Assembly: GCA_965230995.1 (NCBI GenBank)
Contig: OZ246398.1
Span: forward strand, 656,213 to 720,212
DNA length: 64,000 nucleotides
Direction: 5' to 3'
Source: an uncultured Candidatus Saccharibacteria bacterium
GTDB taxonomy: Bacteria > Patescibacteriota > Minisyncoccia > Phycocordibacterales > G965230995
Made by a program: the position numbers and the translations under genes. Below, in pieces: positions 17,930 to 57,598 of this stretch. The notes beneath the pieces are model-generated. The model made no database searches and was not told the DNA's origin. It saw only the letters and a program-made list of their open reading frames with translations. How positions within the stretch are numbered: position 1 is the first letter of the stretch; each line of letters starts with the position of its first letter.

Positions 17930-17985
17930 TTGATTTTTTTATAGAACTGTTGTATAGTAATAATAGGTTCGAAACAGTTCCTAAT
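17930..17985 (+). promoter_or_regulatory. promoter of island B gene (TTGATT-17-TGTATAGT) bracketed by 8-bp inverted repeat GAACTGTT / AACAGTTC; predicted transcript starts at ATAGGTTCGAAAC
   Basis: -35 at 17930-35 and extended -10 at 17951-58. The inverted repeat at 17944-51 and 17972-79 flanks the -10/TSS region. Confidence 0.5.
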
Positions 17986-18011
17986 CGGCAATCAATTTAG
18001 CGAGGTGTGTA

Positions 18012-18383
18012 ATGGACGCTGACAGACCTGGAATAGTGATCACCACCAGGGCAGACATCTCTCAGTTCGAGTTCCTGCGTCTGGTTCAGGATGGGTTGCT
18101 CAGATTCATCTGCGAACACGACGATTTAGAGGGGCAGTTCGTAGCCGTGGAGATTAATCTCTCCGACAGTAACCTGCCCGCACGTGGTGAGGGCATCGAG
18201 GCAGAAATCAAGTTCATCTTCTGCTACGACCGGATGACGAGCTTTCCGAGGTATCACCGCTTCTCAATCAACATGGGGAAGCAATTCCTTGAATCGGATA
18301 ACGTTCGCATGATCCACTCGGAGTTCCTTGACAACAGGGACAGCATCACCGTCAAGGCACGTATGGCACTTGCACAACAGTAA
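18012..18383 (+). CDS. hypothetical protein (123 aa) in GC-rich island B
   Basis: About 52% GC ORF with GAGGTG Shine-Dalgarno, own promoter and own terminator. No recognisable domain. Confidence 0.55.
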   Translation: MDADRPGIVITTRADISQFEFLRLVQDGLLRFICEHDDLEGQFVAVEINLSDSNLPARGEGIEAEIKFIFCYDRMTSFPRYHRFSINMGKQFLESDNVRMIHSEFLDNRDSITVKARMALAQQ

Positions 18384-18398
18384 CCGACACAGGAGGAT

Positions 18399-18428
18399 GG
18401 GCGCGTAAAGCTTGACGCGCCTTTTTTG
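18399..18428 (+). terminator. rho-independent terminator of island B gene (GGCGCGT-aaagcttga-CGCGCC plus TTTTTT)
   Basis: GC-rich hairpin plus T6. Confidence 0.75.
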
Positions 18429-34733: not shown

Positions 34734-34765
34734 AATTTTATTTTTAGTTTGATTTATAAATTTGA

Positions 34766-37700
34766 TTATTCTGTCATATCAGCTTCTTCTCCTGTTTCGA
34801 CCTTTTTCTCTAGTTTTACATCAAGTGCGAGTCCGCGTAAGTTGTAAAGGAATACATTGAACGATGCTGGCAAGTTCTGGTGCCTGATTGGCTCGCCTTT
34901 CACAATAGAATCAAAGGCAGCAGATCTTCCGACAATGTCGTCAGATTTGATCGTCAAAACTTCTCTTAGGTTGTGTGCAACACCGTGTCCCAAAAGTGCC
35001 CAGACTTCCATTTCTCCGAATCTCTGTCCTCCACCTTGTGCTCTACCTCCGAGAGGTTGCTGTGTAATGAGAGAGTAAGGACCAATTGATCGCATATGTA
35101 TTTTATCCTCAACCATGTGGTGCAATTTGAGAATATACATATATCCAACGGCAATGTTTTGTTCGAATGCTTCTCCGGTTCGTCCGTCGTATAATTTCAT
35201 TTTTCCGTCTGTCGAGAATCCTGCCTTGACCAATTCGTCTTTTATTTCTTTGTCTGTTGCTCCGGCAAATGCAGGGACGATTGCTTGGTATCCAAGAGTA
35301 TTAGCAGCAAGACCCAAGTGAAGCTCGAGAATCTGACCCAAGTTCATTCGGCTTGGAACTCCAAGCGGTGTCAAAATTAGATCGACAGGTGTTCCGTCTT
35401 CCATATATGGCATATCTTCCTCTGGAAGGATTCGAGAGATAACACCCTTGTTTCCGTGTCGTCCTGCCAATTTGTCACCAACAGAAATATGTCTGATTTG
35501 CGCAACCTCGATGTGGATTCTTTTAATGATTCCAGATTCGAGTTTGTCTCCTCTCTCTCTAGAAAATACTTGAACGTTTATGATTCGCCCTCTCTTTCCG
35601 TTTTCCATTCTCTTTGATGTATCTTTTACATCTCGAGCTTTTTCACCAAACAGTGACCTGAGAAGTCTTTCTTCTGGAGTAAGTTGTGTCTCTCCCTTTG
35701 GTGTAATTTTTCCAACCAAAATATCTCCTGGTCTTACTTCGGCTCCGATTCTAATGATTCCATCTTCACCAAGATTTTTTAGTTTTCCTTCACCAACGTT
35801 TGGAATATCACAAGTTGTAACCTCTGGTCCCAATTTTGTATCTCTGACGTTGATTATGAATTCTTCAATGTGAATACTTGAGAAAGTATTTTTCTTTACC
35901 AATCTTTCAGAAACAATAATCGCGTCTTCATAGTTTGAACCAGACCAAGACATAAATGCAACGAGGATATTTTGTCCCAATGCAAGCTGTCCGTTATCTG
36001 ACGAAGTAGTATCGGCCATTACCTGACCCTTTTTGACTTTTTGTCCAACCTCGACTATTGGTCTCTGGTGGAATGCAGTAAAGTTGTTTGTTCTTGAAAA
36101 ACTTACAAGTTTGTATGTTCTTGTTTTTCCTTTTGAATCTTTTACGATTATGTGTTTTGCATCTACTGCTTCGACTATTCCGTCAATATCAGAGATTATA
36201 AGTCTTCCTGTATTTCTAACAGCTTTTTCTTCGATTCCTGTTGCAACTAGAGGGGCATCAGCAACAAGACAAGGTGTTGCTTGCTTTTGCATGTTAGAAC
36301 CCATCAATGCTCGGTTTGCATCGTCATGATTTAGAAACGGAATCATGTTTGTTGCAATTGAGAATGGCTGACTTGTTGAAACGTCAATATAATCCACTTC
36401 TCCTTTTTCAACCAAAACTGGCTTTCCGTTTACACGAACCTCTACTTTTTCATCCATAATATGACCTTTACTGTCATATTTTGTTTGTGCGTGAGCAATC
36501 TTAAAGTTCTCTTCTTCGGCTGCGTTTAGGTAAACGACTTCTCCTGTAATTTTTCCGTTCTTTACTTTTACATAAGGAGCCTCGATCATTCCGAAGTCAT
36601 TTATTCGAGCATAAACTGACAGTCTCAAGATAAGTCCAATGTTTGGACCTTCTGGTGTGTGGATAGGACAAAGTCTTCCGTAGTGTGAAGGGTGAACGTC
36701 TCGAACTTCGATTCCAGCTCTTGATCTATTTAGACCACCTGGTCCCAAAGCAGAAAGTGTTCGCAAATGTTCTATCTCGGAAAGAGTGTTTTCCTGTTGC
36801 ATGAACTGAGACAACTGGTTTGTCGTAAAGAATTCTTTGATTCTAGCCTGGAGAGGTTTAACTGAAATAAAGTTCACAGGAAGTGAAGAATCGGTGTCGA
36901 TAGTAGACATTCGGTTCTGAACATTTCTCCTTATCTGTGCCATACCAACTCTGATTTTTTGCTGAAGAGTTTCTCCGACATATCTAACACGTCTTGATCC
37001 AAGGTGATCAATATCATCTGGTTCTGCGTGCGGGGTTGTGTTTAGTTCTGTAATTTTGTTGATGATAATCAAAAGATCATCAAGATCTATAATTCTTTTT
37101 TCTGTAGCTTTGTCTGTAAATGGCAATCCAAATCTTTTGTTGAATCTGAATCGTCCTACTTTTGAAAGGTCATATCTATCTGCACCAAAGATAGATTTGA
37201 AAAATTCTCTTGCGTTTTCTGGAGTGGCCAAATCTCCGTCTCGCAATTTTTTGTGAATCTCAACATAAGCATCGTCGGGATTTTTTGATGTTTCTTTTGT
37301 GAGAGTTTTTTCTATATAAGAGACAGTGTTAGGATTTCCCTTGAAGAATTTTAGCATTTCTTCTCTTGTTTCTAGTCCAAAAGCATAAAGCAGAGTAGAC
37401 AGAGGAAATTTTCGCTTTCGGTCGATTCGAACATAGATAACTCCATCGCTATCTGATTCGATTTCAACCCAAGCTCCTCTAGAAGGAATTATTTTTGCTC
37501 CAAAATAATTTCGTCCTTTTATTTCTTGAGCGGTGAAAAATACACCATATGATCTTGCGAGCTGTGGAACGATTACTCTTTCAATTCCAGAAATAACAAA
37601 AGTTCCGTGATTTGTCATAAGAGGAAAATCTGTCATAAAGATTTCCTGCTCCTTTTCTGAGCCTGTAGTAAAGTTCTTTAATTTTACTCTCGCTTTGAGA

Positions 37701-37975
37701 GGCGCCTCGTAGGAAAGTTTATTTTCCTTTGCAAAAAATTCGTCGTATTTTGGCTGACCTAATTCAAAACCAGTAAAATCGAGCTGAAATTTCTTCTCGG
37801 AATAGTCTCTGATAGAAGAAAATTCCTTGAAAACTTCGGCTAGACCTTCTCGAACAAGCCAGTCGTATGACACGAGCTGTGCTTCTGCAAAGTCCGGCAG
37901 ATCTGTAAAGGCTTCTTTGTAGGCGCTGAAAAATTTCTTTTCGCGCTTACCGATTGACGTGGTGCTGTCTTTCAT
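34766..37975 (-). CDS. rpoB: DNA-directed RNA polymerase subunit beta
   Basis: 1069 aa. Conserved rifampicin-cluster and catalytic regions. Confidence 0.95.
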   Translation of the reverse strand: MKDSTTSIGKREKKFFSAYKEAFTDLPDFAEAQLVSYDWLVREGLAEVFKEFSSIRDYSEKKFQLDFTGFELGQPKYDEFFAKENKLSYEAPLKARVKLKNFTTGSEKEQEIFMTDFPLMTNHGTFVISGIERVIVPQLARSYGVFFTAQEIKGRNYFGAKIIPSRGAWVEIESDSDGVIYVRIDRKRKFPLSTLLYAFGLETREEMLKFFKGNPNTVSYIEKTLTKETSKNPDDAYVEIHKKLRDGDLATPENAREFFKSIFGADRYDLSKVGRFRFNKRFGLPFTDKATEKRIIDLDDLLIIINKITELNTTPHAEPDDIDHLGSRRVRYVGETLQQKIRVGMAQIRRNVQNRMSTIDTDSSLPVNFISVKPLQARIKEFFTTNQLSQFMQQENTLSEIEHLRTLSALGPGGLNRSRAGIEVRDVHPSHYGRLCPIHTPEGPNIGLILRLSVYARINDFGMIEAPYVKVKNGKITGEVVYLNAAEEENFKIAHAQTKYDSKGHIMDEKVEVRVNGKPVLVEKGEVDYIDVSTSQPFSIATNMIPFLNHDDANRALMGSNMQKQATPCLVADAPLVATGIEEKAVRNTGRLIISDIDGIVEAVDAKHIIVKDSKGKTRTYKLVSFSRTNNFTAFHQRPIVEVGQKVKKGQVMADTTSSDNGQLALGQNILVAFMSWSGSNYEDAIIVSERLVKKNTFSSIHIEEFIINVRDTKLGPEVTTCDIPNVGEGKLKNLGEDGIIRIGAEVRPGDILVGKITPKGETQLTPEERLLRSLFGEKARDVKDTSKRMENGKRGRIINVQVFSRERGDKLESGIIKRIHIEVAQIRHISVGDKLAGRHGNKGVISRILPEEDMPYMEDGTPVDLILTPLGVPSRMNLGQILELHLGLAANTLGYQAIVPAFAGATDKEIKDELVKAGFSTDGKMKLYDGRTGEAFEQNIAVGYMYILKLHHMVEDKIHMRSIGPYSLITQQPLGGRAQGGGQRFGEMEVWALLGHGVAHNLREVLTIKSDDIVGRSAAFDSIVKGEPIRHQNLPASFNVFLYNLRGLALDVKLEKKVETGEEADMTE

Positions 37976-38240
37976 AAACTATTTCTATTAATAATTACTA
38001 CTAAAATTCCCGTCTTGGAAAATTAATAAAAACACAAAAGCACCCTTTTTAGAGGTGTCGTCCTTTAGCTGTTTTTATAAAAAATATTTTCGCAAGATTT
38101 TTCAGGGACGTCGCATTGGCCGATGCAACGATACTTGTTAAATCCCGACAAAACATCATAACGCAATCAAGAATGTCGTTGTCGTCAAGTATACACAAAT
38201 CTACCCCCGAGTCAATAGAATAATTTCTTAATTAAAGGCT

Positions 38241-38912
38241 TTACTTGCCTGAAAGAGGTTTTTTGCTCTTTTTACTACGCCATTTCTCTATTTCGGCGTG
38301 ATTTCCAGACAAAAGCACCTCTGGAACGGTATATTTTTTCTTTTTGAAAACAAAGGATTCTGGTCTTGTATATACATCATTTGAAGCATTTCTCCCCTCT
38401 TCAACAGAATCGAAATTGCCCAATATTCCTGGTATCCTCCTTGCAATAGTATCCACAATTATCATCGATGGCAGTTCACCACCTGTCAGTACAAAAGGTC
38501 CGACTGAGATTTCATCTGGATTAAATACTTCTTTCACTCTGGCATCTATACCCTCGTATCTACCAGAAATTATAACCACATCAGAAAAATCACTGGCAAC
38601 CTTGTCTGCATATTCATTTGAAAACTGATTTCCTTGCGGAGTCAAAAAAATCATTTTAACTTTTTTCTTTTTTCCAATTGCTTTTGCAATTGCCTTTATT
38701 ACTGGCAATGCCCTGATAACCATTCCCGGACCTCCGCCGTATGGTTTGTCATCTACTCTGATTTTTTTGTTTTTCTCAAAGTCCTTAGGGTCGTAGAATT
38801 TTACAGATATTTTTTTATCATCGATAGCGCGCTTTAAAATGGAATGTTCAATATATCCAGAAATAGATTCTGGAAAAAGTGTCACTATATGGAAATTGAC
38901 CTTTTTTGACAT
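38241..38912 (-). CDS. trmD: tRNA (guanine37-N1)-methyltransferase TrmD
   Basis: SPOUT-fold motifs (YGGGPGMV..., ISGRYEGIDARV). Confidence 0.9.
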   Translation of the reverse strand: MSKKVNFHIVTLFPESISGYIEHSILKRAIDDKKISVKFYDPKDFEKNKKIRVDDKPYGGGPGMVIRALPVIKAIAKAIGKKKKVKMIFLTPQGNQFSNEYADKVASDFSDVVIISGRYEGIDARVKEVFNPDEISVGPFVLTGGELPSMIIVDTIARRIPGILGNFDSVEEGRNASNDVYTRPESFVFKKKKYTVPEVLLSGNHAEIEKWRSKKSKKPLSGK

Positions 38913-38934
38913 ATTGCAAGTTTAAACCAAAACA

Positions 38935-38956
38935 AAAACCGCGCAAGCGGTTTTTG
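38935..38956. terminator. rho-independent terminator (AAAAACCGCG-CAA-GCGGTTTTTG)
   Basis: Near-identical (1 mismatch) to the hairpin at 6011..6033. Confidence 0.75.
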
Positions 38957-38964
38957 TTTTTTAT

Positions 38965-39366
38965 TTAGATTTTAAGATCCTCCATTGCCTCGTCAACGCT
39001 TTTCATTGCAGGTGATGAAGTTGGGACGTTTCCTGCTGTAGCTCTTATGCTTCCAGCTGGTTCGTTGATTTTTAGGTTAACTCTGGCATTGTTTTTCATT
39101 CCAACAACTCTAAGAAGAGTTCTGATTGCCTTTGCTGTATTACCTGATCTTCCGATTACTTTTCCCATATCTTCTGGGTTTACATCGAGAGAAAGCAATA
39201 CCCCCATTTCATCTACAGTTCTGTTAATTTTCACATCTGCGGGTTTGTCGACAAGTGCCTTTACAACAAATTCTAGAAACTGTGCGTCTGACTCCATATA
39301 TTCTGTTTTTATTACTAATTTATGACAGTTTTTCTGTCCTTTGTATATTCTATCAGCTACGGGCAA
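38965..39366 (-). CDS. khpA: KH-domain RNA-binding protein KhpA (YlqC-like)
   Basis: KH motif VIGRSGNTAKAIRTLL. Likely true start at MESDAQ (about 39297). Sits in the rpsP-khpA-trmD cluster. Confidence 0.75.
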   Translation of the reverse strand: MPVADRIYKGQKNCHKLVIKTEYMESDAQFLEFVVKALVDKPADVKINRTVDEMGVLLSLDVNPEDMGKVIGRSGNTAKAIRTLLRVVGMKNNARVNLKINEPAGSIRATAGNVPTSSPAMKSVDEAMEDLKI

Positions 39367-39415
39367 AGAGTCAACAAAAAGCGACCTGTTTGTAGGTCGC
39401 TTTTTGTTTTTGATT

Positions 39416-39892
39416 TTATTGTGGGTTTTCTGCTTTCTTTGCTTCTTCTCTTGCCTTTTCAGCTGCTTCAGCCTCGGCTTTTGCTTTTTCTTCTGCTTCA
39501 GCTTTTGCCTTTGCTTCTACCGCTGCCTTCTCGGCTTCTTCTCTGGCTTTCTTTTCTGCTTCAGCTTTCTCGGCTTCTTCTTTTGCTTTGATAGCTTCAA
39601 GATCTACGATTGGAGATTTCTTTGGGAGAACGTTTTTCTTTTTTCCCTTTACGATTCCTGCGTTTACAAAAAGGTTATAAACAGAGTCAGAAACTTGAGC
39701 GCCGTTTTTCATCCAGTGAAGGACTCTTTCTTGATTGATTTCTGGTTTATCAAATCTTGGATTATATGAGCCCAAAACCTCGTTTGGTTTTCCGCTTCGT
39801 GCAGCATCTTTTGAGTCAGTAACAACAAGACGAAATGTTGATTCGTGCTTTCGACCTGTTTTCTGTAATCGAATTTTTAACATGACAGACAT
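39416..39892 (-). CDS. rpsP: 30S ribosomal protein S16 with Ala/Glu/Lys-rich low-complexity C-terminal extension
   Basis: N-terminal MLKIRLQKTGRKHESTFRLVV is canonical S16. The C-terminal roughly 70 aa is EAEKAEAEKKAREEAEKAAVEAKAKAEAEEKAKAEAEAAEKAREEAKKAE. Confidence 0.85.
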   Translation of the reverse strand: MSVMLKIRLQKTGRKHESTFRLVVTDSKDAARSGKPNEVLGSYNPRFDKPEINQERVLHWMKNGAQVSDSVYNLFVNAGIVKGKKKNVLPKKSPIVDLEAIKAKEEAEKAEAEKKAREEAEKAAVEAKAKAEAEEKAKAEAEAAEKAREEAKKAENPQ

Positions 39893-39992
39893 ACTAACAG
39901 ATGCTTTGAATCAGGTCAATACCATTTTGTATAACAAACTGCCAACCGTCAGATATTCAAAAAACCTAGATTTTGTGATATAGTATTTTTCA

Positions 39993-41996
39993 ATGTTTAA
40001 AAAACAAAGCAAAAAAGATAGCTCCGGTTCCCCCAAAAAGCATTTTCATAGAAAAAACGGCAAAAAACCACGAGATTTAAAGGAAAATGCCAAAACACAA
40101 ACTGGAATAATCAGAACAAATAGGAAAAAAACCGGCTACGTTGATAGAGACGGAGATTTGCCGAGCATCTACTTTCCAGAAGGAAATCTGCTCACAGCCT
40201 TTGACGGAGACGAGATTTCATATGAATTAACTGGAAAAAAAGATAGAAAGAATGACCTCCCCGTTGGTAGAGTTAGGCAAGTTATTTCAAAATTAAAGAA
40301 AAGAATTGTTGGAACTATTGTTTTCGAAAATGGATCTTTTTTTGTAAAACCAGATGATCCAAAAATATATCAAAATATACTTTTAAATGATCAGAATCTA
40401 GAAATCGGACAAAAGGCATTTGTTGAATTCGATTGGAAAAAATATAGCGAAGGACCAAGAGGAAAAATAATAGAACTGCTCGGGAAAGCAAAAGACAATA
40501 ATGCCGAGATGAGATCTATTGCTTTGGAAAAAGGTTTCGATACTTCGTTCTCTCCTATCGTAGAGGCAGAAGCTGAAATGAAGAGAAAAACTGGTTCAAA
40601 GATTTCAAAAGAAGAATTCGAAACAAGAAAAGATTTTAGAGAGACCCTGACTTTTACTATCGATCCTATCGACGCAAAAGATTTTGACGACGCAATTTCC
40701 TTCATAGAATTAGGAAATGGTAATTTTGAAATTGGAGTACATATTGCCGATGTGTCACATTTCGTAAAACCAAGAACTGAATTAGATAAAGAAGCACAGA
40801 AAAGACAATTTTCTGTTTATTTGGTGGACAGAACAATACCAATGCTACCCGAAGCGCTATCAAATGATTTGTGTAGTCTCAATCCCAACGAAGAAAAAAG
40901 AGCTTTTTCTGCAGTTTTTGAAATGGACAAGCGAGGAAAAATACACAAAGAATGGTTTGGAAAAACAGTAATAAAATCTCACAAACGCTTTTCATACGAA
41001 GAAGCTCAGAGCACAATAGAGGATAACTCTCGACATTTTCACAAAGAATTGTCTGTTCTAAACAATATTGCAAAAGAATTACGAATCCAAAAAGAAAAAG
41101 ATGGAGCAATTGATTTCGAAGCACCTGAAGTAAAATTTGTTTTGGATGAAAATGGAAAGCCAATTTCTGTCATAAAGAAAGAGAGAAAAGACGCACACAA
41201 AATGATTGAAGAATATATGCTTCTTGCAAACAGACAGGTTGCAAAATTTATTTCAAATAAAATAAAAAAAGAACACAAAGACAAAGCCTTCCTCTACCGT
41301 GTTCACGACGCACCAAAATCAGAGAGAATAAGCGACCTATCTATTTTCCTCAAAGCTCTTGGATACGAGCTCGAAGCAAAAGACGGCATAGTTTCAAATA
41401 TCCAAATACAAAAATTGATGAAGCAAATATCGGGCACGCCCGAAGAGCTTTTAATTAAAACAGCGGTTCTACGTTCAATGTCAAAAGCCGTTTATACAAC
41501 AAAAAATGTTGGACACTTTGGTTTGGGTTTTGAATTCTATACTCATTTTACCTCACCTATTAGACGTTACCCTGATTTATTGGTCCATAGATTGCTCGAA
41601 GAAACTCTTGCAAATGGTCACATAAGAGAAAGAGATTTTGATTTTCTAAAAAGAATTGGAGAAATGGCAACAGAAAAAGAAATATCTGCCGCTGAAGCAG
41701 AGCGTGCTTCGATAAAATACAAACAGGTTGAATATATGCAAAACTTCGTAGGAAAAACTTTCAACGCCACAATATCAGGTGTTACCGAATGGGGAATTTT
41801 TGTCGAAGAAACAGAAACGAGATCTGAAGGAATGATTAGAATGAAAGATTTAGGAGAAGACTATTTTGAGCTCGATGAAAAATCATATTGTGTCGTTGGC
41901 AGAAAAACAAAAAAGAAATACCGCCTCGGCGATAAGGTATCAGTAAAATTAGTTAATGCAGATCTAGATAATAGAACGCTGGATTTTTCTCTATAA
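39993..41996 (+). CDS. rnr: ribonuclease R (RNB-family 3'-5' exoribonuclease with C-terminal S1 domain)
   Basis: RNB catalytic motifs (IDPIDAKDFDDAIS, HFGLG...YTHFTSPIRRYPDL) and an S1 domain at the C-terminus. Confidence 0.85.
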   Translation: MFKKQSKKDSSGSPKKHFHRKNGKKPRDLKENAKTQTGIIRTNRKKTGYVDRDGDLPSIYFPEGNLLTAFDGDEISYELTGKKDRKNDLPVGRVRQVISKLKKRIVGTIVFENGSFFVKPDDPKIYQNILLNDQNLEIGQKAFVEFDWKKYSEGPRGKIIELLGKAKDNNAEMRSIALEKGFDTSFSPIVEAEAEMKRKTGSKISKEEFETRKDFRETLTFTIDPIDAKDFDDAISFIELGNGNFEIGVHIADVSHFVKPRTELDKEAQKRQFSVYLVDRTIPMLPEALSNDLCSLNPNEEKRAFSAVFEMDKRGKIHKEWFGKTVIKSHKRFSYEEAQSTIEDNSRHFHKELSVLNNIAKELRIQKEKDGAIDFEAPEVKFVLDENGKPISVIKKERKDAHKMIEEYMLLANRQVAKFISNKIKKEHKDKAFLYRVHDAPKSERISDLSIFLKALGYELEAKDGIVSNIQIQKLMKQISGTPEELLIKTAVLRSMSKAVYTTKNVGHFGLGFEFYTHFTSPIRRYPDLLVHRLLEETLANGHIRERDFDFLKRIGEMATEKEISAAEAERASIKYKQVEYMQNFVGKTFNATISGVTEWGIFVEETETRSEGMIRMKDLGEDYFELDEKSYCVVGRKTKKKYRLGDKVSVKLVNADLDNRTLDFSL

Positions 41997-41997
41997 C

Positions 41998-42500
41998 ACC
42001 GATTAAAAACAGAAAAGCCCGACACGATAATCAGACTAATCTGTTCCGTGTACGGACTTGTGCTACTTCTCCTGACTGCTGGAACGGGTCGCACGACCGA
42101 AATCTGTGGCGAAAAGCTCCTTGATATACTTTTCGTGTTTCATCCAGAATTCGATATTCCGTTCGAGCTCGGTACGAACTCGGCTGGGCGCAAGCATACC
42201 CCGCAAGACAACTGCCCGATTGAGACACTCGTCGTAGTTGAGGAACTTTTGCCCCTCATCACGCGCCGAGAACCTCATCTCTACTTTGCCCTTCTTCTTC
42301 AACATAATCCTCGCAATGCCACACTTTTTGCTGAATTGCGACAGGACTTGAGAGAAGATCGCGTTGTTCAGAGCAAGAGCAACCTCGTCTCGAGCGCTGC
42401 GGCATGACTTTCGAGTCATGTGAACCCCCAAAAAATCTAAGAACTGAGAATCGAAGTTTCGAACCTATTTATAAATGATAATCAAAAAAATATTTACAGC
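41998..42500. other. GC-rich island C (single-gene foreign-composition cassette between convergent rnr and smc)
   Basis: About 55% GC. Own promoter, leader motif ATAGGTTCGAAAC and terminator-like hairpin. Confidence 0.65.
42063..42419 (-). CDS. hypothetical protein (about 118 aa) in GC-rich island C
   Basis: ATG at 42419 (the ORF track's extra 4 codons start at a TTG). GGGGG Shine-Dalgarno upstream. The plus-strand 119-aa ORF is judged a shadow ORF. Confidence 0.5.
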   Translation of the reverse strand: MTRKSCRSARDEVALALNNAIFSQVLSQFSKKCGIARIMLKKKGKVEMRFSARDEGQKFLNYDECLNRAVVLRGMLAPSRVRTELERNIEFWMKHEKYIKELFATDFGRATRSSSQEK

Positions 42501-42503
42501 AAG

Positions 42504-44786
42504 TTATTTTGCAACCTTGACTGCTTCGTCAAAAGCAATAGAAAGCAATTTTGAAACCCCACCGGAATTCATTGTGACACCGTAAATAACGCCAGCTCTA
42601 GACATTGTTTCCCTATTGTGGGTAATCAAAATAAGCTGAGAATAATCAGAAAGATTCTGTATCATATCTCCGTATTTTCTAGAATTAGCTTCGTCCAGTG
42701 CTGCGTCTGTTTCGTCCAATATAATAAATGGCGGAGGGTTTACTTGTGACATAGCAAACAGAAGCGCAATAGATGTTAGGGCTCTTTCCCCACCAGAGAG
42801 CATCATAAGACTCTTTATCTTTTTTCTAGGGAGAGAAACAGATATTTCAACTCCTTCTTCTTGTTCGCCTTCTTCGCTGTCTTCTGTCTCAAGGGCCACT
42901 TCGTCTTCTTCGGTCTTTTTTTGTTTTCTCTTTTCTTGCTTTACTACTGACAAACCAGCATTTCCACCACCAAACATAACAGAAAAGAATTTTCCGAATT
43001 CTGTATTTATTTTCTTTATTCCCTCTTTAAATTCTGCTTCTATCCTTGTCTCAAGATCTATAATTAATTCTCGCAAAGCTTCACTACTCTTGTACAAATC
43101 TTCTAGTTCTTTTAGCAAGAACTGATCACGGGCAGTTACGCTTTCATATTCTTTTAGAACGTCATCGCTATTTCCAGCACCCGCATCTTCGAGTCTGATT
43201 TTCAATCGCTCTAGTTTTTTTCTTCTTTCATATTGATTTTGTCTGTCCTCAAGATGGATTACGGTTGAATCCAAAAGTTGTCCATTCTGGTCTTTAATTT
43301 GAGTTGTCTCAAAGTTCTTTATACCAAGTCCAACAAGAACAACAGCTTCTCTGACTTCACCTTCAAAGGCTTCTTTGTCTACAGAAAATCTATTTTGTCT
43401 GATTGCCAGTTCTGAAAGCACATTTTCTACTTGGCTCAAATCAGCTTTAATCTGAAAGACAGCCCTTTCTGCATCTCTATTAGAATCCTTTTCAGCCTCA
43501 ATTTCGTTTTTAATTTTTTCTAATTCACCAGAAAGTTTTGTTTCTTCATTCATTATCTGTGAGAGAGCGTCTTCTTTTGACTTCTTTTCTGTCATTCTGT
43601 TTTTTATCTCTGCTTCAAAACCGGCAATATGAGAATTATCTGCATCACTTTTTTGTTCAGAAAGAAATTCTGAGAAAATTATTCGGATTTGTTTGATATA
43701 TGAAAGTAGCTTGGATGGGTCAGTTTCTCCATCACTTTCTTTGGTTAAATTTTCTATTTGTCTGTACACAGAAAATACAGATGACAGCCTAATCATTTTT
43801 TGATCATCTGATTCAAGTTTTTTCTTTTCAACCGATATCAACCTTTCAAGAGAAGAGACCTCTCCTTCTACACGGCCAATCTCTCTTAGAAGTTCATTTT
43901 TTCTACTTCTTGTTTCTGTAATTTTGCTATCAATATCTATAAAAAGTTTGCTTTTTTCGTCTTCCTTTTTGGTGTCTTCTAGAATTTTTTTGGCTTTAGA
44001 TAAAGATTCTTCCAGTTCTTTTTTTCTATTCAAAGGTTGCGAAAATAATCTTTTTATTTCTTCATTTTCAAAATCAAGATAAACTTTTTCTCTTTTTAAA
44101 TATTCATTATACAAATCGGTAAGCTCGAGCTTCATCGACATTGCTTGTTCTATTTTTTCGACTTGTTTTTTGAGAAATTTTATATGAGGAGCGATTTCTC
44201 TTCGCATCAATTCTATTTCTTTGACGTTTTCTTCGGTCTTCTCGAGTTTTTTGATGCTTTCGTTTTTCTTGTACTGAAAAGTCTTTAGACCCAGGGCGTC
44301 CTCGATAATCATCTTTCTCTCTTTTGGGTTACTGCTCAGTATCCTATCAGCCTCACCCTGAGAAATAATATGATGACCGCTCTGTCCAATATGCGCACTA
44401 GATAGTAATTCCAAAACATCTTTTAATCTTACAGCGCTACCATTTATGAAATATTCGTTAGAACCATCTCGGAAAACAATTCTTTCTATCACCACCTCAT
44501 CCATATCAATAGGAAGGAGTCTTTTTGTATTATCAAATGTAACTTTTACAGAAGCCCTGTTTGCTCGCCCACCATCGCCACCACCGTTAAAAATTAGATC
44601 TTCACCCCTTTTTCCTCGCATTGATTTTATGGATTGCTCACCTAGCACAAAACGAAAGGCTTCGGCAATGTTGCTTTTACCTGAACCATTGGGGCCAACA
44701 ATACCTGCTATTGGACTAGAAAACTCCAAGACACATTTTTGTCCAAAGGATTTAAATCCGGCAAGTTCTAACTGCTTTAAATACAT
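42504..44786 (-). CDS. smc: chromosome partition protein SMC (short, about 760 aa)
   Basis: N-terminal Walker A GPNGSGKSN. C-terminal ABC signature LSGGERALTSIALLFA and Walker B ILDETDAALD. Coiled-coil between them is shorter than typical. Confidence 0.8.
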   Translation of the reverse strand: MYLKQLELAGFKSFGQKCVLEFSSPIAGIVGPNGSGKSNIAEAFRFVLGEQSIKSMRGKRGEDLIFNGGGDGGRANRASVKVTFDNTKRLLPIDMDEVVIERIVFRDGSNEYFINGSAVRLKDVLELLSSAHIGQSGHHIISQGEADRILSSNPKERKMIIEDALGLKTFQYKKNESIKKLEKTEENVKEIELMRREIAPHIKFLKKQVEKIEQAMSMKLELTDLYNEYLKREKVYLDFENEEIKRLFSQPLNRKKELEESLSKAKKILEDTKKEDEKSKLFIDIDSKITETRSRKNELLREIGRVEGEVSSLERLISVEKKKLESDDQKMIRLSSVFSVYRQIENLTKESDGETDPSKLLSYIKQIRIIFSEFLSEQKSDADNSHIAGFEAEIKNRMTEKKSKEDALSQIMNEETKLSGELEKIKNEIEAEKDSNRDAERAVFQIKADLSQVENVLSELAIRQNRFSVDKEAFEGEVREAVVLVGLGIKNFETTQIKDQNGQLLDSTVIHLEDRQNQYERRKKLERLKIRLEDAGAGNSDDVLKEYESVTARDQFLLKELEDLYKSSEALRELIIDLETRIEAEFKEGIKKINTEFGKFFSVMFGGGNAGLSVVKQEKRKQKKTEEDEVALETEDSEEGEQEEGVEISVSLPRKKIKSLMMLSGGERALTSIALLFAMSQVNPPPFIILDETDAALDEANSRKYGDMIQNLSDYSQLILITHNRETMSRAGVIYGVTMNSGGVSKLLSIAFDEAVKVAK

Positions 44787-44828
44787 TATCTTTGATTATA
44801 CGACAAAAACCTGTGTTAAAAAAGCAGA

Positions 44829-45518
44829 CTATATCCACCCTTTTTCACTGAGAGCATTTCTCGCTGCCATTTGCTCGGCGTCCTGTTTTGATCTGCCCTC
44901 GCCTTTTGCCACAAGTTCTTTTCCTAGATATACACCGACTTCAAATCTTTTGTCGTGATCCGGACCAGATTCTTTTAGTGTTTTATACAATGGAGTAATA
45001 GAAACCTCGTCCTGAGATTTTTCTTGGAATTTGCTCTTTGCATCTATCCACGAACCCATCTTTAAAACATCATCAATTTTTGGAGTAACGTGAGACAAAA
45101 TAAATTTCTTTGCTTCATCATATCCCGCCCCGAGATATATTGCCCCAATTATTGCTTCGATTGTATTTGCAAGAATATATTGTCTTGCTCTACCTGTATC
45201 TTTTGATTCTCCGTGTGATAGCAAAAGATAATCATTTACAGAAAGAGCCTCTGCTACTTCGGCAAGAGTCGTAGCATTTACCAAGGCAGACCTATAGGCC
45301 GTCATATCACCTTCGGTCTTGTCCGCATAAGTATTAAACAAGAAATCTGTAACGACTAGCTCGAGCACAGCATCTCCTAAAAATTCGAGTCTTTCGTTAT
45401 GAGCCAAACCCAAATCTCTATTTTCGTTTATATATGATCTGTGAGTGAAGGCTTGTTTTATTAAACCGACGTCTTTGGTCTGCACCCCCGCTTTTTCTAG
45501 AAAAGTTTTGTAATTCAT
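44829..45518 (-). CDS. rnc: ribonuclease III
   Basis: RNase III signature ERLEFLGDAVLE plus C-terminal dsRBD. Confidence 0.9.
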   Translation of the reverse strand: MNYKTFLEKAGVQTKDVGLIKQAFTHRSYINENRDLGLAHNERLEFLGDAVLELVVTDFLFNTYADKTEGDMTAYRSALVNATTLAEVAEALSVNDYLLLSHGESKDTGRARQYILANTIEAIIGAIYLGAGYDEAKKFILSHVTPKIDDVLKMGSWIDAKSKFQEKSQDEVSITPLYKTLKESGPDHDKRFEVGVYLGKELVAKGEGRSKQDAEQMAARNALSEKGWI

Positions 45519-45601
45519 CTTTTTACTTCAGAAAGAGAAATCGACAATAAAGAAAACTTGATTGATGGTTTCTTCTTCTGATTAATTGTTAATCTTCTAA
45601 A

Positions 45602-46498
45602 CTATTTATTTGATGCCAATATTTTTATTGATTTTGTTATTAATGGCAAAATATCATCATAAAAATTAAGGTCTGTAATATCCTCGACATCAAACCATTT
45701 TGCATCGTCGAGACCACCTGTTTTTTCAAGAGATATTTCTTTGAAATCAGTTTTTGCAAGGAAATAATTGACTCTCTTTCTGATTTTTCCAATCTCTGGG
45801 TCATATGCAATGTATTCGTTTACTCCCAAATCAGCGATTATTTCTATATCAAGACCGATTTCTTCTTTGATTTTCTTCTTTGTTCCTTCTTTTATATCAA
45901 GACCTTGTTCTAATTTACCTTTTGACAATGTCCAATGACCAAACACATCGTGAACCAGAGCAACAAGAATCTTGCCTTCTTTTTCGCAATAGACAACTGC
46001 CCCACCCAAATCCAAAATCGGCGCTTCGCTATCAGGAATATTCTTTATCTTTTTTTTTGGTTTGTCGTCTTTACCCGGTTCGCCCATTTCTTTGTAGACG
46101 GCACCGAGGACACCGTTGACGAATTTTCCGCTAGTGTCCCCACCAAATGATTTTGCAAGTTCAATTGCTTCGTTTATAGCAACCTTTGGTGGAACTTCGC
46201 CTCTATCAGAAAACAAGAGCTCAAAGAGTCCAATCCTCAAAATATTTCTATCTACGGTTGATATCTTTTCAAGTGGCCAGTCTGGAGCCGCCTTTGATAT
46301 GACAACATCTAATTCTTTTTTTCTTTTTATAACACCATCGAGGAGAGAATCCATAAATGATTCGTCAGCAAGCCCTTGAGAAAATTCTTCTTTGTTTCGT
46401 ATAAATGCTTTCATAGCATAATCAACACTCTCATTTCGAAAGTCTTGTTCGAATAGAGTCTGAAGAACTATTTGTCTTGAAAGGTGCCTATTTGCCAT
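45602..46498 (-). CDS. nusB: NusB-domain / NUDIX-hydrolase fusion protein
   Basis: N-terminal about 140 aa NusB-like (RHLSRQIVLQTLFE...). C-terminal half carries Nudix box GHWTLSKGKLEQGLDIKEGTKKKIKEEIGL. Confidence 0.7.
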   Translation of the reverse strand: MANRHLSRQIVLQTLFEQDFRNESVDYAMKAFIRNKEEFSQGLADESFMDSLLDGVIKRKKELDVVISKAAPDWPLEKISTVDRNILRIGLFELLFSDRGEVPPKVAINEAIELAKSFGGDTSGKFVNGVLGAVYKEMGEPGKDDKPKKKIKNIPDSEAPILDLGGAVVYCEKEGKILVALVHDVFGHWTLSKGKLEQGLDIKEGTKKKIKEEIGLDIEIIADLGVNEYIAYDPEIGKIRKRVNYFLAKTDFKEISLEKTGGLDDAKWFDVEDITDLNFYDDILPLITKSIKILASNK

Positions 46499-46560
46499 TT
46501 ATATTATTGTAACAAACTTGTAAGCAAAAAGACAATGCTCCGTGCATTGTCTTTTTGACA

Positions 46561-46776
46561 TTACTTCTTTTCTTGTGATTTTTTAACTTTCTTTTCGAGA
46601 TCTTTTTCGACATTCAAAACTGCTTTTCCTTTGTAAGTTCCGCAGTTTAAACATACTCGATGATTCTCTTTTGCGGTACCGCATTTTTCGCAGACAGAAG
46701 AAACTGTCTTGTCGATCGCATGATGTGATCGTCTATTTGCGGTGTGCGCTCTTGTGTGTCGCATTCGTACTGTCAT
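46561..46776 (-). CDS. rpmF: 50S ribosomal protein L32 (extended C-terminus)
   Basis: N-terminal [17 protein letters not shown] and CxxC...CxxC zinc-ribbon pattern. Confidence 0.7.
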
Positions 46777-46834
46777 AACGGAATAGTATAATACAAGCTT
46801 TTTAAAAAAGCAAGTTTAATTTTATAGATATTTA

Positions 46835-47581
46835 TTAGGCCTGGATTTTTGAAAATAGGTAGCTACCGAGGCTCAAAAATACTAGATTAATTAGAAGCAA
46901 AACAACAATATCTGTTGTTAATCCTATATGTGAAGTATTGGTCAGTAACCCCCTAAAGGCATCGATACCGTAGGTAAGAGGATCTATTCTAGATAAAATA
47001 GCGAGAACTTTTGGTATACCCTCGAGAGGAAACAGAGCTCCCGACAGAAAGAAAATCGGCATGACCAAAAAGTTCATAATGATTTGAAAGCCTTGCATAT
47101 CAGTTAGCTTTGATGCAATTGCCGTACCGAGTGCCGTAAATGCACACGCCACCAAAAACATTACAAAAACTAGCGGTATAACATTCCACCAAGAATCTGG
47201 CCTAAAACCGATAAATAGAGAAAGTATAAAAACCAAAATTCCCTGCATCACAGCAACCGTTGCCCCACCCAGAGTTCTACCCAACATAATATTAAATCTC
47301 GATATAGGTGCGACGAGTGTTTCCTTTAAAAATCCAAACTGTCTATCCCAAATTAATTCAATTCCAGAAAATATCGCCATAAAGAGTATTGTCATTCCGA
47401 TAATTCCTGGAGCAAGAAAATCAATATAATTTCCACCACCCGCTTTTGAATAAACAGGTCCAAAACCGTAACCCAGAGCAACTAAATACAAAACCGGCTG
47501 GCCAAGAGAACCAATAATTCTTGCCCTAGAACGAAACGACCTTTTTATTTGTCTCAACCAAAGAATATATATTGTTTTCAT
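46835..47581 (-). CDS. ABC-2 type transporter permease
   Basis: 248 aa with 6 TM segments. Adjacent to the ATPase gene. Confidence 0.75.
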   Translation of the reverse strand: MKTIYILWLRQIKRSFRSRARIIGSLGQPVLYLVALGYGFGPVYSKAGGGNYIDFLAPGIIGMTILFMAIFSGIELIWDRQFGFLKETLVAPISRFNIMLGRTLGGATVAVMQGILVFILSLFIGFRPDSWWNVIPLVFVMFLVACAFTALGTAIASKLTDMQGFQIIMNFLVMPIFFLSGALFPLEGIPKVLAILSRIDPLTYGIDAFRGLLTNTSHIGLTTDIVVLLLINLVFLSLGSYLFSKIQA

Positions 47582-47582
47582 A

Positions 47583-48374
47583 TTATCTTCTGTTCATTTT
47601 TCTCCTCATTCTCATAACATCGAGCGAACTTGCTTCTTCTTCTCTAATAGTTGTACCTGTTAGGGCCAAAAATGCCTCTTCGAGATTATTTGTTTTTGTC
47701 TGTGTTTTTAATTGTTCTGACGTACCCGAAGCAATTATTTTTCCGTGGTCAATAATAGCTATTCTTTGAGCAATCTTTTCTGCTTCTTCCATATAATGAG
47801 TAGTAAAAAATATTGTTGTTCCCTCTTCTTGGTTTAATTTTTTTAGATACTCCCACATATGATTTCTCGTTTGTGGGTCGAGACCTATTGTAGGTTCATC
47901 AAGAAAAAATATTTTTGGATGATGCAGTAGACCGCGAGCAATTTCGAGTCGCCTCTTCATACCACCAGAAAATTCCTTTACAAAGCTGTCCTTTCTGTCC
48001 CAAAGATCAACAAACCGAAGCAATTCTTCCATTCGTGTTCTTCGAACTTTTTTTGGTATATCGTACAAAACTCCATGAAATTCAAGATTCTCCCATGCGG
48101 TGAGCTCATCGTCGGTACTCGGATCCTGAAAAACAATACCGAAAGAACGCCTGGCTTCATCAGGATTTGAAACCGGGTCAAAATCATTTAATCTCAGAGT
48201 TCCAGAGGTTGGATCAAGTAGTGTTGTGAGCATCTTTATTGTTGTGGATTTTCCTGCACCGTTCGGTCCAAGAAAAGCAAAAATCTCTCCTTTTTTTACG
48301 TCGAAAGAAATATCATTTACTGCAGTAAAGTCCTTGAATTTCTTTACTAAATTTTTTACCTCAATACTATTCAT
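47583..48374 (-). CDS. ABC transporter ATP-binding protein
   Basis: Walker A GPNGAGKST, signature SGGMKRR, Walker B FFLDEP. Confidence 0.9.
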   Translation of the reverse strand: MNSIEVKNLVKKFKDFTAVNDISFDVKKGEIFAFLGPNGAGKSTTIKMLTTLLDPTSGTLRLNDFDPVSNPDEARRSFGIVFQDPSTDDELTAWENLEFHGVLYDIPKKVRRTRMEELLRFVDLWDRKDSFVKEFSGGMKRRLEIARGLLHHPKIFFLDEPTIGLDPQTRNHMWEYLKKLNQEEGTTIFFTTHYMEEAEKIAQRIAIIDHGKIIASGTSEQLKTQTKTNNLEEAFLALTGTTIREEEASSLDVMRMRRKMNRR

Positions 48375-48418
48375 AATTCTCGGTATTCTATCACAAAAAT
48401 TTTAAATAAACAAAAAGC

Positions 48419-48449
48419 GTCCGGTTTCGGGGGTGGAACCCGAAACCGG
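48419..48449 (-). terminator. rho-independent terminator of island D gene (TCCGGTTTCGGG-ggtggaa-CCCGAAACCGGA)
   Basis: 12-bp perfect stem. T-run on the minus strand (CGCTTTTTGTTTATTT). Confidence 0.7.
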
Positions 48450-48465
48450 ACGCGAGGACGGACGC

Positions 48466-48882
48466 TCACTTGCTGGCAAGAAGCCAGAGAGCGATGAACC
48501 CGGCGAGAATTCCTGCGACCTTGCGGACCGTGAGTTCACCACTCATCACCATGTGGTAGACTGCCGGAACGGCAAACTGTACCACAAGCATGATGAGGAA
48601 GTACTTCCCGATTTCCGCTTGACTCGCCTTGGCACAGATGGTGTTAAGTGCCAGGACGCCAATCGCCCCGATGAGTCCTGCCAGCAACGCGATGAGGAAC
48701 GATCCTTTATCGTGTGCGACAGTCTGACCAAAGAGGGGTAGCGTAAACCCTACAACAAACGCAATTGTCATCGCCCACAACCACGAGGCGAACGGGCCCG
48801 AAAGCCCAGAGCGACTCATCACTAAGGGCCAGGCTGCGAAAGACAGACCAGTCACAACAGCGAGGATGTAGTACCGCATCAA
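48466..48882 (-). CDS. small 4-TM membrane protein (SMR/DMT-like architecture) in GC-rich island D
   Basis: 138 aa with four hydrophobic helices. AGGAG Shine-Dalgarno. Confidence 0.55.
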   Translation of the reverse strand: MMRYYILAVVTGLSFAAWPLVMSRSGLSGPFASWLWAMTIAFVVGFTLPLFGQTVAHDKGSFLIALLAGLIGAIGVLALNTICAKASQAEIGKYFLIMLVVQFAVPAVYHMVMSGELTVRKVAGILAGFIALWLLASK

Positions 48883-49032
48883 ATTCTCCTGGTTCGTTGT
48901 TCACAAAGTCCAATTCGTCTTAAATGATAACATATTGTATATAAAACGTCAATATATAAAGGAAATATGCACACACATTTAGCACTTTTTAGTAGGATTA
49001 GTTATTAATTAAAAATAACAATATTTTGTTTA

Positions 49033-49644
49033 TTACATTTTTATCCAAGTTTTTCTATGGATATCAGATATTCCGTGTTTTTTTATCGCTTCAATATGCT
49101 TTTTTGTCCCATAGCCTTTATGAATATGAAAGTCATATTGTGGATATTTTTTTGATATCTTTATCATATATCTATCTCTAGTGACTTTTGCCATCACTGA
49201 TGCCATACCAATTACAGGAATTAAACTGTCCCCTTTTATAATTGTCTTTTGTTTTGTAAATTCTTTAGGGGCGTACAGTGAACCGTCGAGAAAAACCTCG
49301 ACATCTTTGCAATCTCTTTCAATTTTTTGCAAAATCTTTTTCAGAGATTTTGAGAGTCCATATTTTATTGCAAAAGAAATTCCTTTTTTATCAATTACCT
49401 TTTCACTAACCAAAGAAACTTCAAAAAAACATTTTTGTTCTTTTGCAAATTCATACATATCCAAAAAAATTTCTTCTCTTTTCTTTACGGTAAGTTTTTT
49501 TGAGTCATTTGCATCTTTTAGGACTTTCTTTGTAAATCTTTTTTCTAGAGCAAATACAGAAACAGAAACTGGTCCAGCAAGAGGGCCTCTACCTGCTTCA
49601 TCAATTCCTATTATGTATTTTGACTGCTTTTTCTGCATACACAT
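49033..49644 (-). CDS. rnhB: ribonuclease HII
   Basis: IIGIDEAGRGPLAGPV active-site motif. Confidence 0.9.
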   Translation of the reverse strand: MCMQKKQSKYIIGIDEAGRGPLAGPVSVSVFALEKRFTKKVLKDANDSKKLTVKKREEIFLDMYEFAKEQKCFFEVSLVSEKVIDKKGISFAIKYGLSKSLKKILQKIERDCKDVEVFLDGSLYAPKEFTKQKTIIKGDSLIPVIGMASVMAKVTRDRYMIKISKKYPQYDFHIHKGYGTKKHIEAIKKHGISDIHRKTWIKM

Positions 49645-49700
49645 AGTATACCTAAAAATGTCTAGAATACGCCCGCTTTGCTTTTTGGTATAATGTTATT

Positions 49701-57044: not shown

Positions 57045-57598
57045 GAAAGGCTTTACATTATTGACTGATGTGGTACAATAGAGAACCAGAAGCAAGGCTA
57101 CATGCTCACTCGGGTATGGTCTTGTTTAGAAAATTCTTTTTTTGAGAGGGCTACAAAATGGCCAAAAAAAAATCAGAGCCACTGGCAGTACAGAGGATGA
57201 AAACCTTCGTAGGAAGGTTTCCCGTCCTGGTCTCAAGCCGTGAAAAGCTCTCGGAGCTTCGGGTCCTCCAGTTGGTACGCCAGTCCTTGCTGGCCCCCGG
57301 CAATGACACCGTCGACACCAGGACCATCGACGAACTGGTGGAGGAGGGTTTGTCCGTAGATGCCGCGTACAGGTCACTTTTGTACCCGACCGGTACGGGC
57401 TACGAAGTGGACGAGAAGCTGTTCAACAATTTCTACACCATCTACGGTGCGTTGAAGTTGATGAAGCGGCGCCCAGACATGTGTACCACCAGAACCTTCA
57501 GTGTGAAGAAGGTGGTAGCCTGAAGCATGGTCTAGCCACCCATGCAGGAGTAAGCCGCGCAATCCCCCGGGAAAGTGCGGCTTCAACGTTTATACTAG
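57045..57598. other. GC-rich island E (single-gene foreign-composition cassette between gyrB and pheT)
   Basis: About 55% GC. Promoter TTTACA-16-TGgTACAAT. Confidence 0.6.
57158..57523 (+). CDS. hypothetical protein (121 aa) in GC-rich island E
   Basis: ORF with GAGAGG Shine-Dalgarno. Minus-strand ORFs here are judged shadow ORFs. No recognisable domain. Confidence 0.5.
   Translation: MAKKKSEPLAVQRMKTFVGRFPVLVSSREKLSELRVLQLVRQSLLAPGNDTVDTRTIDELVEEGLSVDAAYRSLLYPTGTGYEVDEKLFNNFYTIYGALKLMKRRPDMCTTRTFSVKKVVA

Follow-up and report, generated by a model that had tools for sequence, protein, structure and literature searches.

A compositionally foreign orphan gene in the variable rnr/smc junction of a Paceibacteria genome shares a 14-nucleotide element with a second single-gene island

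Morons are described as extra DNA between syntenic genes that deviates in GC content and carries its own promoter and terminator (PMC3594210). In the Patescibacteria, individually transferred genes and small genomic islands have been documented, with transfers reported mostly among members of the Patescibacteria themselves (PMC12455944). The sequence analyzed here is a 64-kb stretch of about 36% GC (referred to below as the window; positions 656,213 to 720,212 of contig OZ246398.1, GenBank assembly GCA_965230995.1) from a bacterium called as Paceibacteria, a member of the Patescibacteria or Candidate Phyla Radiation (CPR), and it includes housekeeping genes. Between the convergent genes rnr and smc, the window contains a GC-rich unit with a single minus-strand open reading frame (ORF), designated island C, which is one of five GC-rich single-gene islands designated A to E. 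The finding is an unannotated foreign orphan gene in a slot that is variable across the lineage, together with a statistically solid 14-nucleotide (nt) sequence, the 14-mer, that islands C and B have in common. Taken as a whole, the statement that island C is a horizontally acquired, moron-like unit with a shared cis-regulatory 14-mer is, in our estimate, about evenly balanced between being right and wrong; that island C is a foreign coding cassette on the minus strand is very probable, whereas a regulatory role for the 14-mer is a tentative proposal that falls somewhat short of even.

The rnr (39993-41996, plus strand) and smc (42504-44786, minus strand) genes converge on an intergenic gap of 507 nt (41997..42503), the whole of which is filled by the presumed inserted unit, comprising, in minus-strand order, a promoter-like site, a leader, the ORF, and a terminator. 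The promoter candidate is a weak sigma-70-like site (42475..42502, minus strand) made up of TTGCTG (42502-42497), a 16-nt spacer, and TATCAT (42480-42475), as the initial annotation had read it, and its -35 hexamer starts 1 nt past the smc stop codon. The 14-mer, AATAGGTTCGAAAC (42456..42469, minus strand), starts 5 nt past the -10 hexamer and ends 36 nt before the ATG. The remaining 36 nt of the 5' leader (42420..42455) have a GC content of 39% and include a Shine-Dalgarno (SD)-like GGGGG at 42429-42425, 5 nt before the ATG. The coding sequence (42063..42419, minus strand) starts with the ATG at 42419-42417 and encodes a basic orphan protein of 118 amino acids (pI 10.0); the four extra codons counted from a TTG at 42431 give a version of 122 amino acids, and both of these starts agree with the initial annotation. 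A perfect 7-bp hairpin, CATGACT-CGAA-AGTCATG (42403..42420, minus strand), was read from the sequence and is present in minimum-free-energy folds. The start codon sits in the 5' arm of this hairpin, which may occlude translation initiation. The intrinsic terminator (42005..42057) consists of a hairpin (42057-42017) followed by a T-run in the minus-strand orientation; going downstream from smc, it is likewise the first terminator encountered. The scanner found no terminator between smc and the island C ORF, and read-through from smc is therefore likely.

The GC content is 0.50 over 42001-42400 and 0.513 for the ORF, lower than the roughly 55% first assigned to this block, with values of 0.56 to 0.62 reached solely in some 50-nt windows. 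The block had been described as unlike the host in composition, and this description held: the GC content of 0.51 in island C compares with 0.35 to 0.36 in rnr and smc and 0.36 for the host. The GC contents at the three codon positions (GC1, GC2, and GC3) of the island C ORF are 0.50, 0.39, and 0.64, versus 0.46 to 0.55, 0.31 to 0.39, and 0.24 to 0.28 in the host genes rnr, smc, eno, and typA (GC3 of 0.27 to 0.28 for rnr and smc). The excess is restricted to the third position, with GC1 and GC2 being host-like, and this pattern indicates a real coding sequence with foreign codon usage. The three-base GC periodicity of the ORF is significant (chi-square p = 8e-4), and its synonymous codon usage correlates with that of the other islands (0.53) and anti-correlates with that of host genes (-0.24). 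The opposite strand carries a 119-amino-acid ORF (42048..42407, plus strand) in the mirror frame, for which reason GC phase alone cannot pick the strand. Trained on the four sister islands, a codon model gave the minus frame +25.8 bits, or 0.22 per codon, which falls inside the leave-one-out range of the true frames (0.07 to 0.30), and gave the plus-strand ORF -10.6 bits, inside the antisense range. The plus-strand ORF also lacks a promoter, SD sequence, or terminator in its own orientation and was judged not to be the gene. On the basis of the codon model, the orientation of the predicted promoter, SD, and terminator signals, and the parallel with the other four islands, the minus strand is taken as the coding strand. 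It had been proposed that homolog conservation would settle this point; no homolog was found for the comparison, and the call, which agrees with the strand originally chosen, was made without it.

A GC-rich, structured noncoding RNA gene would be a different explanation of the same block. Structured RNAs classically stand out as GC-rich islands in AT-rich genomes, and the ORF is skipped by gene callers and has no homologs. The minus-strand transcript also folds better than shuffled sequences (z = -3.1; 0 of 100 shuffles), which the plus strand does not (z = -1.0), although the terminator and the start-codon hairpin account for part of this fold energy. The codon-like GC periodicity, a positive codon-model score that matches those of the four sister ORFs, and the SD-like GGGGG upstream of the ATG all argue against an RNA gene. 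Searches with Rfam 15 over 41900-42600, at the gathering score or with E values up to 10, returned nothing below E = 1.5, and the island loci of nine relatives gave no Rfam match. An RNA gene is thus extremely unlikely, and island C is treated below as protein coding.

The 118-amino-acid product had no homolog in a word-indexed search of 5.8 billion protein clusters. An exhaustive phmmer search against 1.84 billion representatives was empty and did not return even a self-match, because no public gene call includes the island C ORF. Back-translated searches at the DNA level of IMG/VR and JGI metagenomes, tblastn against phage and plasmid records, and a search of PDB sequences likewise yielded no match for this protein, and exact look-ups found neither the 118- nor the 122-amino-acid version on record. 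No relative of island C was present at any other locus among about 160 Paceibacteria loci. Searches against Pfam, NCBIfam, PHROGs, and PADLOC gave no meaningful match for any island protein. A nucleoid-associated or small DNA-binding fold had been suggested; the pI of 10.0 is the one property in its favor, and the fold search gave no assignment. The large protein-set searches covered the products of islands A, B, C, and D, and for A and B they returned no homolog besides the proteins themselves among the 5.8 billion clusters.

The sequence itself is well supported. A Logan contig from run SRR14271374 matches window positions 33216-51996 with 100% identity, and SRR14271365 and SRR14271366 contain identical copies of other parts of the window; this identity across independent Logan assemblies from three sequencing runs excludes an assembly chimera. 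The nearest relatives of the Rnr protein are 54 to 55% identical, and all of them are from Parcubacteria-type metagenome-assembled genomes (search of 185,000 GTDB species genomes and of JGI metagenomes). When Rnr, L32, and other proteins were looked up as exact sequences, the same strain was the only one returned, and these searches gave no empty or ancestral version of the site.

The rnr/smc junction was surveyed in 159 relatives with a complete rnr 3' end. In 121 of these, smc is convergent downstream of rnr, and the gap between the two genes ranges from 3 to 5539 nt (at most 150 nt in 21 relatives, 150 to 1200 nt in 52, and above 1200 nt in 48). Between lineages, the genes found in the gap are unrelated, and they are often GC rich. 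Given this range of lengths and the unrelated cargo, the junction is a slot whose accessory genes vary throughout the lineage, and island C is one occupant of it. The location of the cassette between convergent rnr and smc had already been recognized; island C fills the entire gap, which at 507 nt compares with 3 to 150 nt in the 21 relatives in which the two genes are nearly adjacent.

Other occupants of the junction are diverse. In one relative (L021, 7939-8289, minus strand), the slot holds a GC-rich, 116-amino-acid AraC-type helix-turn-helix protein (Pfam HTH_18, E = 2e-13), and in two others (L004 and L039) it contains ORFs of 224 to 255 amino acids without known identity. A family of ORFs of about 75 amino acids lies directly downstream of rnr in four genomes (L012, 2344-2568; L031, 7970-8215; L035, 8134-8352; L058, 8156-8377; all on the plus strand). 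Its members contain the motif (S/A/K)PGDxVxQ, have no Pfam match, and have a GC content of 0.56 to 0.59 in all four genomes, compared with genome values of 0.38 to 0.44.

Upstream of island C, the initial annotation had pointed to a 13-mer, ATAGGTTCGAAAC, which it placed 36 nt before the island C ATG and 35 nt before the start of island B. Both copies of the 13-mer are there, one at 42468-42456 (minus strand) and the other at 17963-17975 (plus strand), and the offset is 36 nt in both islands. Aligning the two upstream regions, as had been proposed, extended the identity to the exact 14-mer; on either side of it the leaders of B and C align no better than shuffled sequences (equal or better scores in 194 of 500 and in 291 of 500 shuffles). 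The 14-mer starts 3 nt (island B) or 5 nt (island C) past the -10 hexamer, and the predicted transcription start consequently falls inside it in both islands. At its core is GgTTCGAAaC, a 10-bp palindrome of imperfect symmetry overlapping the predicted +1 position, and the word contains five G/C bases in AT-rich surroundings. In the window the 14-mer occurs exactly twice, the eight copies with three mismatches correspond to the chance expectation, and about 13 kb of further sequence from this genome contained no copy. The expectation that the 13-mer would not be frequent was borne out over the sequence examined (two occurrences of the 14-mer in about 77 kb, and none in 1.5 Mb from relatives), a census that covered part of the assembly.

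Such a repeat might have arisen by coincidence. The window contains dozens of repeats of 12 to 14 nt, making any repeated 13-mer in 64 kb unremarkable, and the motif was picked post hoc in the initial annotation. When the 80-nt upstream regions of the five islands were shuffled, a shared 14-mer was obtained in 0 of 2000 trials and a shared 13-mer in 2 of 2000. Among 43 host upstream regions (903 pairs), no pair reached 14 nt and three reached 13 nt; those three 13-mers are A/T-rich words at unequal offsets, unlike the 14-mer with its five G/C bases. The equal offset from the ATG adds roughly a further factor of 1/60, and the leaders in which the two copies occur belong to one rare class of genes. 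The sharing of the 14-mer is real rather than a matter of chance, with coincidence being a highly improbable account of it.

Candidate identities for the 14-mer were compared by eye. It only partially resembles a tRNA T-arm (GGTTCGAAxC), and matches to a LexA/Cheo box, a dif site, a CRISPR repeat handle, and a phage RNA polymerase promoter were also only partial, and all of these identities were rejected; inspection against the integron core site GTTRRRY showed no match. A scan of IMG/VR gave, among the 120 matches listed, single matches only, which had no shared context and looked random, and island leaders from other genomes have only 8- to 11-mers in common. A variant with two mismatches, AATAAGTTCGAAAA, is present in two distant relatives, at 11180-11193 (plus strand) in L031 and at 8370-8383 of the reverse complement (about 5526-5539 of the plus strand) in L042. 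It sits in AT-rich intergenic DNA, in L031 after the terminator of a GC-rich ORF, and these occurrences are probably due to chance.

Each of the five islands consists of a single ORF after an AT-rich sigma-70-like site and a leader of about 40% GC, and together they account for about 5% of the window. The scanner scored the promoter-like sites of A, B, D, and E at 11/12, 9/12, 10/12, and 10/12 and detected a terminator directly after the ORF in B, C, and D only. Island B (17930..18428, plus strand) has TTGATT-17-TATAGT (17930-17958), the 14-mer (17962-17975), a 36-nt leader, an ORF at 18012-18383, and a terminator at 18399-18422 plus a T-run downstream of the ORF. Its acidic product (123 amino acids, pI 5.0, GC3 of 0.69) is unrelated to that of island C, in agreement with the earlier description of the two cassettes, and its structure model was not usable (predicted local distance difference test score of 40). 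The SD region of island B is predicted to pair with codons 5 to 8, and its translation start may, like that of island C, be occluded. Island A (6405..7645, plus strand) has TTGACA-18-TATTAT, a leader of about 125 nt, and an ORF (6560-7645) for an orphan protein of 361 amino acids with a signal peptide and a GC3 of 0.78. Island D (48417..48952, minus strand) has TTGACG-17-TATCAT, an ORF (48466-48882) for a 138-amino-acid membrane protein with a GC3 of 0.65, and a 15-bp terminator. Island E (57052..57523, plus strand) has TTTACA-16-TACAAT and an ORF (57158-57523) for a 121-amino-acid protein with a GC3 of 0.73. Within the leader of island E, between promoter and start codon, is a terminator-like hairpin with a T-rich tail (57101-57128, plus strand) that may be an attenuator. 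Islands C and D have in common a 10-mer, TTATCATTTA (42471-42480 and 48921-48930, both minus strand), which includes the -10 hexamer TATCAT and lies at different distances from the two start codons.

The synonymous codon usage of the islands correlates mutually and with that of GC3-rich ORFs of other Paceibacteria, and it anti-correlates with that of host genes. The islands are no more alike in codon usage than each is to GC-rich ORFs of other Paceibacteria, and codon usage does not single out a common donor. Island D has distant homologs at three Paceibacteria loci, and family D includes GC-rich members in three genomes, including the window (GC3 of 0.56 to 0.65), along with one host-like member (GC3 of 0.37). 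The GC-rich members of this family, and the GC-rich family of about 75 amino acids at the same position in four diverged genomes, are what might be expected if the GC3-rich ORFs were long-resident native genes with a maintained GC-rich codon usage rather than recent imports. That explanation is improbable. Neither the 160 Paceibacteria loci nor the global protein sets contain a relative of island A, B, or C, the content of the slot varies between relatives, and we know of no mechanism that keeps GC3 high in isolated genes of an AT-rich genome.

Under the favored reading, island C would have been acquired horizontally as a self-contained single-gene transcription unit that fills the gap between the convergent 3' ends of rnr and smc. 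Transcription of the minus strand would proceed by read-through from smc, from its own weak promoter, or from both, and the transcript would end at the hairpin and T-run that also serve smc. The 14-mer would be a shared cis-regulatory element at the predicted starts of the B and C transcripts, coupling their expression. One option, suggested by the imperfect 10-bp palindrome of its core, is a short operator to which a dimeric DNA-binding protein would bind; another is a 5'-terminal tag on the mRNA. The broader proposal of a leader RNA motif found no support in the folds, in which leader z-scores were -0.2 to -0.9, the predicted 5' hairpins of B and C differed and were not homologous, and no Rfam match was obtained.

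Several observations weigh against this reading. The island C promoter agrees with the consensus at 8 of 12 positions (3 of 6 in the -35 hexamer), is below the scanner threshold, and was not flagged. On the identical Logan contig (locus L001, 8782-9288), public gene calling places nothing in the whole rnr/smc gap; gene callers evidently overlook this ORF, the codon usage of which differs from that of the host. No donor or homolog for A, B, or C was found among up to 15 billion proteins, and as a consequence the case for horizontal origin is one of composition. No target-site duplications or terminal repeats were present at the islands, the longest flanking direct or inverted repeats across all five were 5 to 11 nt, with direct repeats at the shuffle level, and no integrase, transposase, or recombinase domain was encoded among the called genes within about 9 kb of C in both directions or within 3 kb of B. 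With respect to the 14-mer, the census of its own genome covered about 77 kb (the 64-kb window and the additional 13 kb) of about 0.74 Mb. The 14-mer is absent from islands A, D, and E, has no copies with one or two mismatches in the window, and has none with zero or one mismatch in the 160 loci (1.5 Mb) scanned from relatives. Two exact copies without degenerate variants fit recent common descent equally as well as a binding site.

The 14-mer could be what is left of a shared ancestry of the two cassettes in one donor replicon or vehicle, such as a phage or plasmid with a conserved gene-start or junction sequence ahead of its genes, or it could be a short patch copied between leaders. In addition to the two exact copies, the position of the 14-mer at the switch from an AT-rich promoter (about 20 to 30% GC) to a leader of roughly 40% GC and its equal spacing to the ATG in B and C are consistent with this origin. 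The flanks, however, align no better than shuffled sequences, which would reduce the inherited segment to a mere 14 nt; the viral contigs among the listed matches provide no shared context; and codon usage singles out no common donor. The common source genome originally suggested for B and C is not picked out by codon usage, and it is neither demonstrated nor excluded. Descent from a common source is, on this balance, a doubtful explanation of the 14-mer.

The initial annotation had also raised the possibility of a recombination site. In this view the 14-mer serves, or once served, as a recombination or insertion site at which a dedicated mobilization system places cassettes. In two of the five islands it lies where the foreign DNA apparently begins on the upstream side, and the slot is variable in relatives. 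Against this, each of the two islands carries one copy, with none at the opposite boundary, flanking repeats do not exceed the shuffle level, the other three islands lack the element altogether, no integron core was recognized, and no recombinase domain is encoded in the neighborhoods described above. A recombination site is, for these reasons, very unlikely, and a cis-regulatory element shared by B and C remains the preferred interpretation of the 14-mer. A more speculative possibility, to which we assign a very slim chance, is that Paceibacteria capture foreign genes as transcript-sized modules, with the 14-mer as a junction or loading signature and the rnr/smc gap as a preferred landing site. 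The composition switches at about the predicted transcription start in all five islands, the three terminators that the scanner detected (B, C, and D) follow immediately on the ORF, and it is conceivable, if only as a long shot, that such transcript-sized boundaries are the pattern left by insertion of mRNA-derived cDNA or by a dedicated system that captures cassettes and loads them behind ready-made AT-rich promoters.

CPR genomes are tiny and streamlined, and yet about 5% of this 64-kb window consists of five foreign-looking single-gene units. Of the four islands whose proteins were searched, three have products that lack relatives in public sets of roughly 15 billion proteins. That island C is missing from public gene calls indicates that pipelines trained on host codon usage can miss such genes. 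The units mark where streamlined genomes tolerate new genes, for example, at the convergent ends of rnr and smc. The 14-mer provides a testable handle on the coregulation of accessory genes in an uncultivated CPR bacterium, and should it prove to be a signal for capture or loading, a previously undescribed way of acquiring genes would be indicated.

The neighboring genes are trmD, rpsP, rnr, smc, rnc, nusB, rpmF, and dnaE. Additional features were observed in the window. The sole Rfam match is a group I intron (4779-5071, minus strand; RF00028, 65 bits, full-length model), directly upstream of which is a GIY-YIG ORF (5107-5400, minus strand) that probably encodes a homing endonuclease; no tRNA or rRNA was detected in the window, and a 30-nt direct repeat is present at 4504-4533 and 4721-4750. 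Two 32-nt palindromic terminator hairpins that are 91% identical, ACAAAAACCGCG(T/C)AAGCGGTTTTTGT, are located about 33 kb apart, at 6009-6040 and 38932-38963. Ribosomal protein S16 (39416-39892, minus strand) has a long C-terminal extension rich in Lys, Ala, and Glu that is encoded by imperfect tandem repeats (39438-39581).

Integron cassettes carry a 3' attC site, are arrayed next to intI and attI, and are usually promoterless. The islands resemble them in being compact single-ORF accessory units that accumulate but lack attC, an integrase, attI, and an array; they are instead scattered, each has its own promoter-like site, and the 3' end of island C is a hairpin and T-run terminator. They differ from transposons, insertion sequences, and miniature inverted-repeat transposable elements in having no terminal inverted repeats, target-site duplication, or nearby transposase domain and from tRNA-targeted genomic islands in that the window contains no tRNA or tmRNA gene and the islands have no flanking repeats. 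The 14-mer is similar to palindromic repressor operators in that it overlaps the predicted +1 position, has an imperfect 10-bp dyad, and is common to two unrelated promoters. It differs from them in having two sites only, with no degenerate variants and no binding protein assigned, and in that its distance to the ATG, rather than to the -10 hexamer, is conserved.

Like the transfers documented in Patescibacteria (PMC12455944), the islands are accessory genes of deviant composition within streamlined CPR genomes, and family D fits that picture with its homologs in other Paceibacteria. That study infers transfer from homologs and donors, of which A, B, and C have none, whereas the islands described here are delimited by transcript-sized boundaries and GC3. 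The closest parallel is with phage morons such as HK97 gene 15. Like these, island C is extra DNA between genes that are adjacent in relatives, deviates in GC content from its surroundings (0.51 versus 0.35 to 0.36), and carries a single gene behind a promoter-like site, with a terminator directly after the ORF in B, C, and D, and the cargo often has no known function. It differs in residing in a bacterial chromosome between housekeeping genes rather than in a phage or prophage, with no PHROG match; in having a weak promoter (8/12) alongside its terminator, with read-through from smc likely; and in the 14-mer close to the predicted start site in two units, which is not a described feature of morons. 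If its weak promoter-like site is a working promoter, island C would match the published definition of a moron in all but phage residence.

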